DNA of 58,189 bases, filler included, from Candidatus Woesearchaeota archaeon (GTDB lineage: Archaea > Nanobdellota > Nanobdellia > Woesearchaeales > ARS49): NCBI GenBank assembly GCA_016188265.1. It is 3 parts of 3 records of this genome, joined end to end, with 100 filler letters (N's around TTAATTAATTAA, not from the genome) between each part and the next. Parts side by side here need not be neighbours in the genome. Positions count along the whole stretch, not along the records: positions 25,214 to 50,851 come from JACPID010000017.1; 2 more parts are not named here. The stretch is one strand, 5' to 3'. Both the position numbers and the translations under genes were made by a program. Positions 3,693-38,288 of this stretch are shown here, one piece after another; position 1 is the first letter of the stretch, and every line of letters begins with the position of its first letter. Below the pieces are notes generated by a model. The model had not been told where the DNA came from and searched no databases. It was given only the letters and a program-made list of their open reading frames with translations.

Positions 3693-3759
3693 GAATAAAT
3701 CATGTGTTAATAAAATTTTATACGAAACGTTTAAAAACGAGTTTAAAGATCACTTTATT

Positions 3760-4030
3760 GGCGAACTAAGCTGGGAGGGTTAGCACGCTCCTGTAACCGT
3801 AAACGTGCTTTAGACGGAGTTGAAGTGAGAAAGGCGGTATAATTTTTTCGTCTCAGTCTCATGCTGGACAATGATGTGTTGTCCTCTTTGGTGGTTGTTG
3901 CAAGAAATGTGTCAGGTCCGGAAGGAAGCAGCACTAATTGTACCAGTCCATGCTTTGAGGGTTGCAGTACAGAGAAATGCTTGAGGTAGCTGGACAAAAA
4001 CTTTATATCCACTTTTTTGCACGTTCGCCA
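3760..4030 (+). ncRNA. ffs: Archaeal SRP (7S) RNA
   Basis: Helix-8 signature GTGTCAGGTCCGGAAGGAAGCAGCAC at 3909-3934; 5' GGCGAAC pairs with 3' GTTCGCC; Alu-like TGTAACC; TTTAAA box upstream. Confidence 0.93.
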
Positions 4031-4370: not shown

Positions 4371-4592
4371 ATGGTATTAAAAACATTTAACGTTGAAGAA
4401 GTAGTATATAAAAAGTTTTCAGATTTTTGTAAGGGGCATGGTGTTAGTATGAGCAAACAAGTAGAGCTATTTATGGAGTCTATGGTAGAAGAAGAACCAG
4501 AAGCAAAGCAAGAATATCTCCAAAAATTGGAAAGAATCAGAAAAGGGAAGTTTATGAGAGTAGATAATTTCGCTAGCAGGTACGGAATATAA
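4371..4592 (+). CDS. Small RHH-like protein, putative antitoxin
   Basis: KTFNV..VYKKF..FCK..G.SMSKQVE.FM pattern; directly upstream of toxin remnant. Confidence 0.65.
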   Translation: MVLKTFNVEEVVYKKFSDFCKGHGVSMSKQVELFMESMVEEEPEAKQEYLQKLERIRKGKFMRVDNFASRYGI

Positions 4593-4594
4593 TT

Positions 4595-4710
4595 ATGGCT
4601 TATTATTTAGAGTTCATATCAGTAAATCTTTTGTTTTAACTTTTGAGATAAATGAAAAAAATAAAGTTGTAAGACTTCTAGACTATGATCATCATGATAA
4701 CATATATTAA
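4595..4710 (+). pseudogene. Internally deleted RelE/YafQ-type toxin
   Basis: ATG frame gives MAYYLE; another frame from 4609 gives RVHISKSFVLTFEINEKNKVVRLLDYDHHDNIY*, typical of the archaeal RelE-family C-terminus. Confidence 0.7.
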
Positions 4711-4762: not shown

Positions 4763-4860
4763 TGCCCCGTACGGGATTTGAACCCGTGTCTGAGCCTTGC
4801 ACTAACTTGTTGAACAGTTTCGAGAGGGCTCCATCCTTGACCGGACTAGACTAACGGGGC
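4763..4860 (-). tRNA. tRNA-Glu(CTC) with anticodon-loop intron
   Basis: GCCCCGT...ACGGGGC-A acceptor; GAGCC-CT CTC G-[~23 nt]-A-GGCTC; ACGGG-TTCAAAT-CCCGT. Confidence 0.92.
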
Positions 4861-25213: not shown

Positions 25214-25302
25214 TGGGCCCGGCCAGATTTGAACTGGCGACCTTCTCGAATTTGAGTTATGCACTCGTCAACGAGATGTCATAACCACTAGACCACGGAC
25301 CC
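25214..25302 (-). tRNA. tRNA-Val(GAC) with anticodon-loop intron
   Basis: GGGTCCG/CGGGCCC-A; TCTCG-TT GAC-[~16 nt]-CGAGA; GCCAG-TTCAAAT-CTGGC. Confidence 0.9.
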
Positions 25303-37042: not shown

Positions 37043-37165
37043 TTAACTTAAAAGTATTGTTCTTGAGGGTATTATTCCACTTAAGGATAGTTCTATGATT
37101 ACAAATAAGATATAAATTATTATTAGTGTTATTCCGTGGATTGTTGTTAGTTTTACTCTTGCATA
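37043..37165 (-). pseudogene. C-terminal membrane-protein fragment (Na+/Ca2+ exchanger-like)
   Basis: Startless frame YARVKLTTIHGITLIIIYILFVIIELSLSGIIPSRTILLS*. Confidence 0.35.
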
Positions 37166-37243
37166 AATTGAGTTTTTTCAGTTATTACTTTGCTTCTTTT
37201 ATAACTAAAATTTATAACTAAAAAGCGATTTCTTTTATTGATC

Positions 37244-37369
37244 TTATTTTTTCTTCTTTTTTTTAGATAATAGAACTAGTTTTTTTACTTTTGAAGTTTT
37301 GCTTTTTTTACTAGCAGAACGTCCTTTTTTCTTTGTTTTTTTAGGTGCTTTCTTTCTCTTTTTTGCCAT
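37244..37369 (-). CDS. 41-aa Lys-rich basic peptide
   Basis: MAKKRKKAPKKTKKKGRSASKKSKTSKVKKLVLLSKKKKKK*; GGAG SD upstream. Confidence 0.65.
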   Translation of the reverse strand: MAKKRKKAPKKTKKKGRSASKKSKTSKVKKLVLLSKKKKKK

Positions 37370-37412
37370 ACTACAAACTCCAAATTTAAAACTCTATATT
37401 TTAGTCTTTAGT

Positions 37413-37632
37413 GACTCTGGACTCGGTGAAAAAGTGCCTTAAGCAACTACCGATCAAACTTAACCTCTCGGCTTGTTTTAAAGGTTATCTTCTTCGCGCC
37501 GTAAACAAGCTTAACAAGCATAGGTTTCGTATGGTGAGTTATAGTCCAGCCACCATATTAATGGCTCATGCTTGCCATAGGCATTTACAGTCACGCTCTT
37601 TTCAGAGCAACCGAACAGTCCGTGTCAGAGTT
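37413..37632 (-). ncRNA. Unassigned multi-branched structured RNA
   Basis: About eight nested helices with G-U pairs favouring the minus strand, GAAA tetraloop, closing stem, TTTATTAA/BRE-like promoter at 37653-37666. Confidence 0.72.
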
Positions 37633-37712
37633 ATTAATTATAATACTGGTTGTTAATAAAGATTTCTAGAATGTTGAATATATATTATAATAGTGCATAT
37701 AATAGTGAAATA

Positions 37713-38288
37713 TTAGTGTTTAAAAAATGGTTTATAATTTTCTGACAGATCTCTTAGATCTTTTTTTGCTTGTGCTTTAATTGTTTCGTAACTAAAAAAA
37801 TTTTGTGGATGTGGATTAAAAAAAGCATAATAAGTCTTTGAGATTTCAATAAATTTATTCCATAAATCTTTAAGAGCCTGAAGTTTTTTTTGAGCATCTT
37901 CTGAATCAACTAGTTTAGGCAATCTTATTCCTTCATAATGCTGTTTTGATTTTTTTACTAGTCCAGAAATGTTTGATGACTCCATACACCTACTATAACC
38001 TAAAGATGTTATGCTAATATTGCCTGAAGGAAGATAAAAATCTCTTTTAACAGGAAAAAATAAATTAGTATGGTGAATAAAATGAAGATTATAATAGGTA
38101 CAAGTATAACAACAATTACAATTCTCTCTCTTATCTCTAACTTTAAAAAAATCAAAACTATTGCCAAAATCTAATAATAATTTCCAATTTTCAGTGATGC
38201 TTTTTTCAAGCTCTGAATCCACTAATTGCAATTTCATCAAATTAATAAAAAAGAGACTTGTTTTTATAAATATTTCTAAATAATACAA
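37713..38288 (-). CDS. Hypothetical protein (Cys cluster CNCCYTC)
   Basis: Long ORF; true start probably the internal ATG (MKLQLV). Confidence 0.55.
   Translation of the reverse strand: MYYLEIFIKTSLFFINLMKLQLVDSELEKSITENWKLLLDFGNSFDFFKVRDKRENCNCCYTCTYYNLHFIHHTNLFFPVKRDFYLPSGNISITSLGYSRCMESSNISGLVKKSKQHYEGIRLPKLVDSEDAQKKLQALKDLWNKFIEISKTYYAFFNPHPQNFFSYETIKAQAKKDLRDLSENYKPFFKH

Follow-up and report, generated by a model that had tools for sequence, protein, structure and literature searches.

To our knowledge, archaea have few large structured RNAs beyond rRNA, tRNA, RNase P RNA and SRP RNA, and we know of none described for DPANN archaea. In bacteria, comparative genomics has yielded large orphan structured RNAs such as OLE, GOLLD, ROOL and raiA. 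The SRP RNA of Thermoproteus is reportedly encoded by a permuted gene and matured through a circle made at a bulge-helix-bulge (BHB) motif, and cbf5 is said to be the archaeal case of a BHB intron in a pre-mRNA. The BHB motif, two 3-nt bulges around a 4-bp helix, occurs in archaeal pre-mRNA, and a broader specificity is reported for EndA, the tRNA-splicing endonuclease, in DPANN archaea (PMC5829648). EndA and the RNA ligase RtcB together form the archaeal route to circular RNA (PMC12558985); the BHB circles treated there include excised tRNA introns, for example the tRNA-Trp intron, which is a C/D box RNA, and circular pre-16S and pre-23S rRNA intermediates, and the excised part of such a transcript can itself be a functional RNA.

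The locus analysed here would resemble these archaeal circles, in which flanking inverted repeats form the BHB, the junction falls at the EndA cut and the ends are sealed (PMC12558985). Unlike in the tRNA and rRNA circles, the host transcript is a dedicated gene with exons carrying a micro-protein ORF, and the RNA is a large four-way-junction RNA, mostly with a relaxed BHB. As with pre-mRNA BHB introns, the EndA substrate would lie within a protein-coding transcript; in contrast to them, the intron would occupy the 5' UTR and not the coding frame, and would itself be the conserved, presumably functional part. Like the Thermoproteus SRP RNA, it would be a structured non-coding RNA that works as a circle made at a BHB, whereas that RNA is known and universal and has a permuted gene, and the present RNA has an unpermuted gene, no family match and a patchy distribution. 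Its intricate fold, strong covariation and many invariant unpaired bases recall OLE, GOLLD, ROOL and raiA, from which it differs in being archaeal, predicted to be circular, about 200 nt long and linked to a micro-protein; it matches none of their Rfam models.

The locus lies in a window (the whole stretch of DNA analysed, 58,189 nt) from a Candidatus Woesearchaeota archaeon. A structured RNA of about 215 nt with a four-way-junction fold occupies ~37412-37627 on the minus strand, in an island of raised G+C content (0.42-0.43 versus 0.17-0.29 in the adjoining DNA). A preliminary description of this DNA had proposed an unassigned multi-branched RNA on that strand, and the proposal stands: a scan of the window with the Rfam 15 covariance models returned no family at gathering score for the RNA locus, and the sole match at E<=10, Histone3 on the opposite strand (17.7 bits against a cut-off of 34), is due to chance. 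A literature search found neither the RNA nor the associated peptide described. Judged by sequence comparison, the locus is a previously undescribed, highly conserved structured RNA of Nanobdellota (DPANN) archaea.

It is scarcely credible that the locus is a known RNA in disguise, that is, a permuted or highly divergent RNase P RNA, SRP RNA, 5S rRNA or rRNA fragment missed by linear covariance models. Circularisation can mask permuted genes, and 23S rRNA is absent from the assembly. Against this, the genome carries its RNase P RNA (121.1 bits), SRP RNA (119.5 bits) and 5S rRNA (75.2 bits) elsewhere, which rules out these identities, and an rRNA fragment is ruled out by the LSU model, which matches nothing in the whole genome, the RNA locus included, and by the SSU model, whose matches lie on C21 only. 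A natural tandem pair of the RNA in locus L029, in which the junction order is read through, gave three sub-threshold chance matches in the Rfam scan and nothing else, and the RNA was not found in most of the related genomes searched.

Homologs were identified with two covariance models. In the genome collection, model R1 confirmed at least 24 RNA copies in 23 of 80 retrieved loci, and a pooled R1 run gave at least 29 matches in 28 genome loci; in metagenome contigs, where the scan listed at least 120 candidate stretches, model R2 gave at least 82 matches in 80 of 80 retrieved loci. Genome bins and metagenomes together contain at least 107 distinct RNA sequences, and hundreds of distinct RNA contigs aligned per metatranscriptome run, which makes this a common family. 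Paired cells amounted to 95.3% in 79 distinct metagenome rows, compared with 29.7-41.0% when the partners were slid, and to 93.5% in the 8 copies from the source family (36-43% with partners slid). Compensatory change on both sides was found at 45 of 66 pairs in the metagenome set, a count reached by 0 of 500 shuffles. About 60 unpaired bases are invariant in the ~200-nt RNA. Folding energy alone (z = -3.31 on the minus strand and -4.08 on the plus strand) does not pick out the strand. G-U and U-G are frequent among the conserved pairs (for example GU in 74, 65, 63 and 63 of 79 rows), in agreement with the earlier claim of strand-specific pairs under selection at the RNA level; the minus strand is right because these pairs would read C-A on the other strand.

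The elements of the RNA gene, in order of transcription, are as follows.

37653..37667, minus strand: BRE/TATA-like promoter element AGAAATC-TTTATTAA, assigned by sequence, 25 nt upstream of P1
37624..37627, minus strand: P1 5' strand UGAC, which would remain in the 5' exon (4 bp here)
37618..37621, minus strand: P2 5' strand GGAC, central 4-bp BHB helix, from the covariation listing of 102 sequences
37615..37617, minus strand: bulge A, UGU; predicted cut after G37616, with U37615 as the first base of the circle
37417..37615, minus strand: predicted excised and circularised RNA, 199 nt, placed by RNA junctions of relatives and not of this genome
37610..37614, minus strand: P3 5' strand UCGGU, whose partner by covariation is ACCGA at 37423-37427
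37595..37608, minus strand: P4 hairpin with a GAAA (GNRA-type) tetraloop, from covarying pairs
37496..37594, minus strand: P5, a long arm of three segments, with near-invariant CUGGACUAUAACUC in its terminal loop (CUGGAC = 37549-37544)
37428..37495, minus strand: P6 arm, with GAAGAAG/CUUUUUC, CCUU/AAGG and distal helices, and invariant AGAUAACC and AGGUUAAG
37419..37422, minus strand: P2 3' strand GUCC, from the alignment and the RNA junctions of relatives; excision would free it for the P5 loop
37416..37418, minus strand: bulge B, AGA; predicted cut after G37417, so that the 3' exon would begin with A37416; in relatives, the RNA junctions stop at 37418/37417
37412..37415, minus strand: P1 3' strand GUCA, from the comparison of full-length copies

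The promoter element, proposed earlier and retained here, lines up with TATA-like elements in three homologs, and the best TTTATATA-like match begins 35-44 nt ahead of P2 in 51 of 99 loci. The closing stem had been drawn as one unit and in fact fuses P1 (UGAC/GUCA), P2 (GGAC/GUCC) and P3. P1 is present in 28 of 28 full-length copies, where it measures 3-13 bp and covaries in wholly differing sequences. All four pairs of P2 form in 97 of 102 sequences, with GGAC, GGAU or GGGC opposite invariant GUCC. P3 forms with five of five pairs in 98 of 102 sequences and shows compensatory versions (UCAGU/ACUGA in 12, UCGCU/AGCGA in 1 and CCGGU/ACCGG in 1); the previously drawn helix ACUGUUCGGU/AUCGGUAGU gives way to this pairing. 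P4, earlier recognised as UGCUCU-GAAA-AGAGCG, is borne out by covariation (UA in 56 and CG in 22 of 79; loop GAAA or GGAA). So are three of the helices first drawn, CUGUAAAU/GUUUACGG, GGCAAGCAUG/UAUGCUUGUU and UAUGGUG/CACCAUA, all of which belong to arm P5 (helices 4-8; compensatory change at 23 of 29 pairs). In P6 (helices 9-12), compensatory change occurs at 15 of 23 pairs. Here CCUU pairs with AAGG, with compensations CCUC/GAGG and CCUG/CAGG, which replaces the AACCUUU/AGAGGUU helix of the preliminary description; the alternative AACCU/AGGUU was dropped on finding two sequences that change without compensation, and UGCU-UAA-GGCA forms no hairpin. A K-turn at GCGAAGAAG was also discarded, as the opposite strand belongs to P4. 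The family is under strong constraint and has a clear, testable anatomy.

The basal geometry, overlooked in the preliminary description together with its probable consequence, excision and circularisation, is our main finding. The central helix between the predicted cut sites is exactly 4 bp long (37621-37618 with 37422-37419). All 102 aligned sequences have a bulge A of 3 nt. Bulge B measures 3 nt in 32 of 81 copies and is relaxed in the remainder (1-6 nt facing 0-3 nt), and a strict BHB, with P1 abutting P2, a 3-nt bulge B and no opposing bases, is found in 12 of 81, counts that lean toward the BHB model through a scoring that favoured 3-nt bulges and short 5' loops. The BHB of this genome is the weakest seen, with a 4-bp P1 and a 2x3 internal loop (AGA facing AC) in place of a clean bulge.

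Junctions at these positions were found in relatives' contigs from four RNA-labelled freshwater metatranscriptome runs (four study codes, which may be one campaign). In these contigs, 37614 or 37615 is joined back to 37418, in 5 joint rows with two or one extra letters between the ends. Loose ends at 37417, continuing into UUCGGUUGUCCUGGAAAGGA, occur in X6 and X15 (6 contigs each; in X6, 140 of 193 aligned contigs are less than 90% alike). All joints and the two loose-end consensus sequences have exactly 3 nt between GUCC and UCGG, as expected if each bulge is cut behind its second base. The junction pattern was found in 0 of 303 DNA loci, and the window's own genome is also without it; tandem DNA copies have a spacer of ~30 nt, GGAC included, between GUCC and UCGG. 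One observed junction type, AAA, is missing from the 81 triplets that the DNA predicts. These data are assembled contigs of relatives rather than raw reads and are blind to strand, ends and amounts; RNA libraries can contain DNA, and the comparison with DNA covered the 303 loci and this genome. Contigs 221-230 nt long would match a circle of 196-200 nt extended by an overlap of k-1, for what we take to be the assembler's k, and are no more than a hint. The RNA contigs have near-zero cover at 37285-37403 (ORF and spacer) and zero past 37625, from which neither ORF expression nor transcript ends can be read since relatives' flanks are unalignable; likewise, the contigs contain no joint skipping from ~37616 to ~37416 (ligated exons), an uninformative result since diverged relatives' flanks would not align. 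Both enzymes are encoded in the genome: EndA (PF01974, 94.5 bits, C8:15605-15865, in a 180-aa frame) and RtcB (PF01139, 564.3 bits, C21:6792-8108).

We propose the following pathway. Transcription would most likely start a few bases ahead of P1, driven by the BRE/TATA-like element. The flanks of the primary transcript would pair into P1, P2 (GGAC/GUCC) and P3, with a 3-nt bulge per strand 3' of P2. The resulting BHB would be canonical in a few members and relaxed in the majority, the present one included. EndA would cleave each bulge past its second base and RtcB would seal the ends, as suggested by the geometry and by the junctions of relatives. In this genome, the product would be a 199-nt circle from U37615 to G37417, forming a perfect four-way junction of P3, P4 (with its GNRA loop), P5 and P6, in which P3 would become a hairpin capped by the junction. 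Excision would free GUCC, and the P3 loop GUCCAG could then pair with the invariant P5 loop CUGGAC, a strand swap with one covarying pair: the second base of bulge B and the base 5' of UGGAC in the P5 loop are G-C in 93, U-A in 5, A-U in 2 and mismatched in 2 of 102 sequences, and the other five pairs of this helix never vary. Lengthening this kissing helix by a pair between the base ahead of CUGGAC and the third base of the junction proved inconsistent by eye. If the exons left behind were joined, as happens when rRNA and tRNA are processed, they would give a short-leader mRNA for a 41-aa basic protein. The circle would be the primary functional product, acting in trans.

On this evidence, the locus probably belongs to a new structured RNA family of Nanobdellota (DPANN) archaea whose mature form is a circle acting in trans. 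It would bring a dedicated non-coding RNA gene, and possibly also a 5'-UTR intron of a protein gene, into the substrate range of the tRNA-splicing endonuclease and ligase, and would be a natural RNA whose final fold needs circularisation. Our best guess is that the circle is a stable protein- or ligand-binding RNA, with the micro-protein as a frequent but dispensable partner. A bolder reading, which we offer as tentative, is that the circle represents a new functional RNA class (catalytic, ligand-binding or the core of a new RNP) and attains its active fold only after the programmed strand swap, the same processing event making the micro-protein mRNA. If true, the tRNA-splicing machinery would strip away one of the two P2 strands, whose place would be taken by a hairpin loop that mimics it, and RNA and protein would be coupled in a single gene that relies on tRNA-splicing enzymes and is scattered across DPANN archaea.

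Downstream of the RNA lie the following features.

37378..37381, minus strand: Shine-Dalgarno-like GGAG, read from the sequence, 8 nt ahead of the ATG
37244..37369, minus strand: 41-aa ORF with 23 K/R and no D/E, of a conserved micro-protein family with the core GRxPSxKSKxSKV(K/R)KLIKLAK
37220..37224, minus strand: run of five T, by sequence only a possible archaeal terminator, 20 nt past the ORF stop codon

The GGAG and the Lys-rich ORF were already part of the preliminary description, and GGTG/GAGGTGA-like motifs precede the ATG in several homologs. Products of the family range from 34 to 74 aa. Synonymous codons vary at 11 of 11 motif positions, and comparison of the homologs shows a Lys-rich ORF conserved at the protein level, which adds a basic protein family of 34-74 aa to the overlooked micro-proteins. 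The expected linkage is pronounced, the ORF lying downstream of 92 of 98 evaluable RNA copies (two judged by eye).

The RNA might accordingly be read as a cis-regulatory leader, a structured 5' UTR that would adjust translation of the ORF in response to a ligand or to the basic protein itself, with excision as a by-product or a regulatory step. It shares with riboswitch and ribosomal-protein leaders a position directly upstream of an ORF, the closing stem P1 and occasional tandem copies. The distance from the end of the covariance-model match to the start codon (median 23 nt) is too tight for a second promoter, the 3' strand of P1 lies near the Shine-Dalgarno sequence and ATG, and in L029 and L236, the only such loci, tandem copies precede one ORF, as in tandem riboswitches. 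Unlike such leaders, however, the RNA also occurs without the ORF, in 6 of 98 evaluable copies, one of which ends in a hairpin and T-run, and genomes G028 and G084 carry the RNA with no match to the peptide anywhere. The closed circle in relatives' RNA contigs omits the ORF, and the number of invariant unpaired bases exceeds that in known protein-autoregulatory leaders. No riboswitch expression platform, in the form of an alternative terminator or a sequestrator pairing, was identified. A purely cis-regulatory leader, as first suggested, is therefore rather improbable.

An RNP of the RNA and the basic peptide was the other role suggested at the outset. Its obligate form, a single particle in which the circle and the micro-protein each depend on the other, would account for the strict co-transcriptional linkage and for a conserved peptide family with a basic amphipathic core. 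Of 77 family genomes, 6 carry the peptide, always adjoining the RNA, and none of 69 genomes lacking the RNA has it. We nevertheless regard such a particle as unlikely, given the RNA-only loci and genomes above and a peptide with no Pfam match and no PDB sequence match at E<=10; its 107 database relatives are all unnamed or 'hypothetical', one with a Pfam domain, and an ESM Atlas search with the peptide returned its own unnamed archaeal cluster only. A circle acting in trans, with the peptide as a dispensable partner, remains our preferred reading.

The RNA is carried by 8 of 77 family genomes, 5 of 151 in an order sample and 14 of 151 in a phylum sample (the window's own genome included), a patchy spread at odds with a core housekeeping RNA. 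Within one genus, G098 has the module at a syntenic site where G008, G034, G095 and G096 lack it; the best covariance-model score in those four was 6 bits with filters off. With presence varying within genera, the RNA could serve as a marker for uncultured, genome-reduced symbionts.

Such sporadic gain and loss would also suit a selfish or addiction module, in which a cationic amphipathic peptide is the toxin and the abundant structured RNA neutralises the peptide or its message. RNA-only loci occur and no peptide-only locus was seen, and two copies occur in G286 and G296. We consider this reading highly unlikely. Known RNA antitoxins are far less elaborate than the present RNA. Type III toxin-antitoxin systems combine short tandem RNA repeats with a downstream endoribonuclease toxin that processes them, unlike the single ~225-nt unit (tandem in 2 loci) and the 34-74-aa product without a nuclease family match found here. 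A virus origin was rejected: 17 pattern matches in viral contigs were all chance, with 0 of 17 confirmed by the covariance model. Among 84 flanking ORFs of 27 loci there was no integrase, transposase, reverse transcriptase, nuclease, Cas or mobile-element domain and no conserved neighbour gene; the domains seen were NUDIX three times and HIT, ScpA and Trm5 twice each.

The locus coincides with a G+C island at 37400-37649 (G+C content 0.42-0.43 versus 0.17-0.29 in the DNA around it). The succession of elements read on its minus strand in the preliminary description, a promoter, a structured stretch, a ribosome-binding site and an open reading frame (ORF), is borne out on the sequence:

37667-37653, minus strand: BRE/TATA-like element, AGAAATC-TTTATTAA
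Downstream of the BRE/TATA-like element, minus strand: structured stretch
37381-37378, minus strand: GGAG
37369-37244, minus strand: ORF of 41 aa, with 23 Lys/Arg and no acidic residues

Since the folding energy beat that of shuffled sequences on both strands (z = -3.31 for minus, -4.08 for plus), the strand could not be picked by energy; the minus strand was picked as the coding strand of the RNA by many conserved G-U pairs in the metagenome alignment. The RNA promoter is closely preceded by the end of a 191-aa ORF (37713-38288, minus strand), which had no Pfam match and no counterpart beside the RNA in other genomes.

The RNA has true homologs. A blastn search of 61 related genomes recovered three (G012, G020 and G028; E values 2e-39 to 7e-17) and otherwise short chance matches. 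R1, a covariance model built from these three and our own copy, detected the RNA in 8 of the family's 77 genomes, representing 6 of 29 genera. The non-matching genomes in both searches, and in the peptide-profile search described below, include three flagged as unpublished (G008, G034 and G096) as well as G024. The species-representative genome collection was searched by degenerate pattern, and 80 loci were fetched and scored with R1, which confirmed at least 24 copies in 23 of them; among the matches listed, these came from records labelled Woesearchaeota, Nanoarchaeota, Pacearchaeota and Micrarchaeota. One record labelled Methanosarcinales (L091, whose copy scored 228.7 bits, the same as that of G020) and one labelled Patescibacteria (L041, a 1,069-bp contig) are probably labelling or binning errors, not true hosts. 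A further pattern scan covered metagenome contigs, and each of the 80 loci fetched from it was confirmed (at least 82 copies). The model confirmed none of 17 pattern matches in viral contigs.

Alignment of these copies resolved the following structure:

37627-37624 with 37415-37412, minus strand: helix P1, UGAC / GUCA
37623-37622, minus strand: unpaired AC, 5' strand
37621-37618 with 37422-37419, minus strand: helix P2, GGAC / GUCC
37617-37615, minus strand: bulge A, UGU, 5' strand
37614-37610 with 37427-37423, minus strand: helix P3, UCGGU / ACCGA
37608-37595, minus strand: P4, GAAA-capped hairpin
37594-37496, minus strand: P5, long three-segment arm
37495-37428, minus strand: P6
37418-37416, minus strand: bulge B, AGA, 3' strand

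A four-way junction, nearly free of linker bases, connects P3, P4, P5 and P6. Some 60 bases that are unpaired or at junctions hardly vary among all the copies, and the P5 terminal loop carries a near-invariant CUGGACUAUAACUC. Of the helices drawn earlier, P4 and the three segments of P5 were retained, UUCGGU/AUCGGUAGU, AACCUUU/AGAGGUU and UGCU-UAA-GGCA were not, and the single closing stem proved to be a merger of P1, P2 and P3. The selection at the RNA level suggested in the preliminary description is matched by covariation. In eight family copies, 93.5% of cells were paired (36-43% in slid controls), with compensatory change at 30 of 66 pairs; in 79 distinct metagenome rows the values were 95.3% (29.7-41.0%) and 45 of 66 pairs (584 cells), counts that lean to the model to which the alignment was fitted, a bias that the slid controls carry too. 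None of 500 shuffles of the metagenome set reached any of five measures.

The best TTTATATA-like match begins 35-44 nt upstream of P2 in 51 of the 99 loci that include 80 nt of upstream sequence, where a uniform spread would give about one in seven. This position suggests that transcription starts just upstream of P1, as in the window.

The RNA matched no Rfam family, in keeping with the lack of any recognised consensus reported earlier. At gathering score, the whole window yielded only one SRP RNA and two tRNAs; at E ≤ 10, the single match within 37100-37800 was the Histone3 stem-loop, on the plus strand, with 17.7 bits where the cut-off is 34. That the locus holds a known RNA in disguise is barely credible. 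RNase P RNA lies elsewhere in the genome (C22:74781-75115, 121.1 bits), as do archaeal SRP RNA (window 3759-4030, plus strand, 119.5 bits, full model length) and 5S rRNA (C4:3760-3872, 75.2 bits), and the archaeal LSU model had no match in the assembly, locus included. The data show a new, widespread and strongly covarying RNA family.

Some other features of the assembly were recorded. By the LSU model search it contains no 23S rRNA, and its 16S rRNA (C21:13724-14985) aligns in two pieces (model positions 4-828 and 940-1160) separated by an unaligned stretch of about 110 nt. The window comprises several contigs (25214-50851 is C17, 1-25638; the remainder is other contigs or N). Its Rfam tRNAs, at 4763-4860 (98 nt, 51.4 bits) and 25214-25302 (89 nt, 57.1 bits; beginning exactly at the contig end), both on the minus strand, have lengths that suggest intron-bearing or otherwise disrupted genes; ARAGORN found none in the window.

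The base of the RNA is bulge-helix-bulge (BHB)-like. P1 differs wholly in sequence among copies, yet is paired, over 3-13 bp, in all 28 full-length genome copies. P2 is 4 bp throughout, its four pairs complete in 97 of 102 copies; bulge A is 3 nt long in all 102; and P3 is fully paired in 98 of 102, with compensatory changes to UCAGU/ACUGA (12 copies), UCGCU/AGCGA (1) and CCGGU/ACCGG (1). On both strands the 4-bp helix is followed on its 3' side by the bulge, as in the archaeal splicing motif, for which a passage of PMC5829648 specifies a 4-bp helix between two 3-nt bulges. Bulge B is less regular: among 81 usable copies, it was strictly canonical in 12 and 3 nt long in 32, with 1-6 nt opposite 0-3 unpaired bases in the others, under a scoring biased towards 3-nt bulges and short 5' loops, and with 26 of 107 copies, many of them P3 covariants, left out by an over-strict regular expression. 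The same paper associates EndA (tRNA-splicing endonuclease) variants of DPANN lineages with disrupted tRNA genes and relaxed motifs (PMC5829648). The genome encodes both EndA (94.5 bits, 180-aa frame) and the ligase RtcB (564.3 bits).

In an index of public runs, four DNA runs contain the stretch whole and may be where it came from, and eight RNA-labelled freshwater metatranscriptomes share a few words with it. From four of the RNA runs (with four study codes, possibly one campaign), contigs were aligned on 37200-37700 at 80% likeness, giving 193 to 604 contigs per run, most less than 90% alike; they belong to relatives, not to our organism. Five rows joined 37614 or 37615 back to 37418 across two or one intervening letters. 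Their sequences on the RNA strand are GUCC-A-AA-UCGG (X15, X17 and X19), GUCC-A-A-U-UCGG (X19) and GUCC-A-UA-UCGG (X6). Loose ends at 37417 (six contigs each in X6 and X15, agreement 0.85 and 0.93) read GUCC-AG followed by UUCGGUUGUCCUGGAAAGGA, running from the 3' end straight into P3 and P4. In all joints and loose ends, precisely three bases separate the 3' strand of P2 from the 5' strand of P3.

Canonical EndA sites follow the second nucleotide of either 3-nt bulge, as deduced from the 37/38 position of tRNA introns. Cutting there and sealing gives exactly the three bases observed, two from bulge B and the last of bulge A. Of 81 copies, 67 predict from their DNA the triplet AGU, the commonest and that of the loose ends; the predictions include AUA and AAU, but not AAA. 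The circular junction pattern occurred in none of 303 DNA loci, nor in our own genome, and tandem DNA loci (L029 and L236) retain P1 and GGAC between copies. RNA contigs of relatives (assemblies, not individual reads, from libraries that may contain DNA) carry circular junctions at the BHB cut sites. The corresponding circle of our own RNA would run from U37615 to G37417 (199 nt), and we infer circularisation for this copy too, although its 4-bp P1 is weak and it has a 2x3 loop. An explanation centred on biogenesis, in which BHB excision would release a circle acting in trans while the exons would be ligated into the peptide mRNA, appears to us reasonably probable.

Excision would also change the pairing. 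It would remove GGAC, the 5' strand of P2, so that in the circle P3 would become a hairpin, its loop made up of GUCC and the three junction bases. GUCCAG is perfectly complementary to the P5 loop CUGGAC. No variation occurs at five of the six resulting pairs, which are uninformative on pairing; the sixth, which joins the base preceding UGGAC to the second base of bulge B, a base left unpaired in the precursor, covaries (G-C 93, U-A 5, A-U 2, mismatch 2; n = 102), its loop base having been left free by both scan patterns. We interpret this as a loop-loop helix that takes over from P2 once the RNA is excised, a strand swap. A circular fold by ViennaRNA, whose prediction does not extend to pseudoknots, kept the four-way junction and closed P3 over the junction. 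The biogenesis route is already known (PMC5829648, PMC12558985); the openly available full texts searched held no description of the RNA or peptide, and the RNA class, host gene layout and strand swap are new as far as the literature searched reaches.

A conserved micro-protein gene occupies the 3' flank of the RNA. Its linkage, proposed from the single locus, extends to relatives: among 98 copies with enough downstream DNA (of at least 107 distinct ones), a K/R-rich ORF follows as tabulated.

K/R-rich ORF downstream of the RNA (98 evaluable copies)
Present, with K(V/I/M)xK(L/I/M) motif: 89 (two being first copies of tandem pairs)
Truncated by contig end: 1
Missed by filter, found by eye (L186, L243): 2
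Absent: 6

The ORFs span 34-74 aa, start a median of 23 nt beyond the model end, in several cases after an SD-like GGTG/GAGGTGA, and share the core GRxPSxKSKxSKV(K/R)KLIKLAK. Among 13 with an identical 11-residue core, synonymous codons vary at 11 of 11 positions, indicating selection on the protein. The family had no Pfam or PDB match; its 107 relatives in databases bear DPANN labels and are either unnamed or 'hypothetical'. Such constant linkage would suit an RNA acting purely as a cis-leader of the ORF, which is unlikely, or an obligate RNA-peptide particle, which is doubtful. The peptide profile matched 6 of 77 family genomes, always directly beside the RNA, and none of the 69 without it; both genomes of genus g29 carry the RNA without the peptide, one with a hairpin and T-run directly after it. 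The peptide therefore depends on the RNA, and the RNA is independent of the peptide.

The spread is patchy. R2, a second covariance model, found the RNA in 5 of 151 order-sample and 14 of 151 phylum-sample genomes (own genome counted) and, within these, in 7 of 16 genomes of one family; as 14-29 candidates were scored per genome under strict filters, these counts mean 'found in', not 'absent from'. In genus g9, the genes flanking the module in G098 (826 nt apart) are also adjacent in G008, G034, G095 and G096 (468, 523, 7 and 322 nt apart), where RNA traces were absent from the gaps (best score 6 bits, filters off), a synteny that rests on the three genomes flagged as unpublished. Such patchiness might recall an addiction-type accessory module, which we regard as very unlikely: the 84 ORFs that flank 27 loci form a diverse and unremarkable set (ribosomal proteins, Trm5, NUDIX, HIT, ScpA, PCNA, proteases and regulators), and none bears a mobile-element or defence signature.

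Two genomes have two copies each, G286 on one contig 2.5 kb apart (C67:1694-1919 and 4469-4697) and G296 on C28 and C68. At L029:1128-1579 and L236:37-495, two diverged copies lie head to tail behind one promoter and ahead of a single peptide ORF; as each copy has its own P1/P2, each could be excised on its own. L062, an RNA-only locus, has a tRNA-like sequence, recognised by eye, about 40 nt past the RNA on the opposite strand (~1400-1480).
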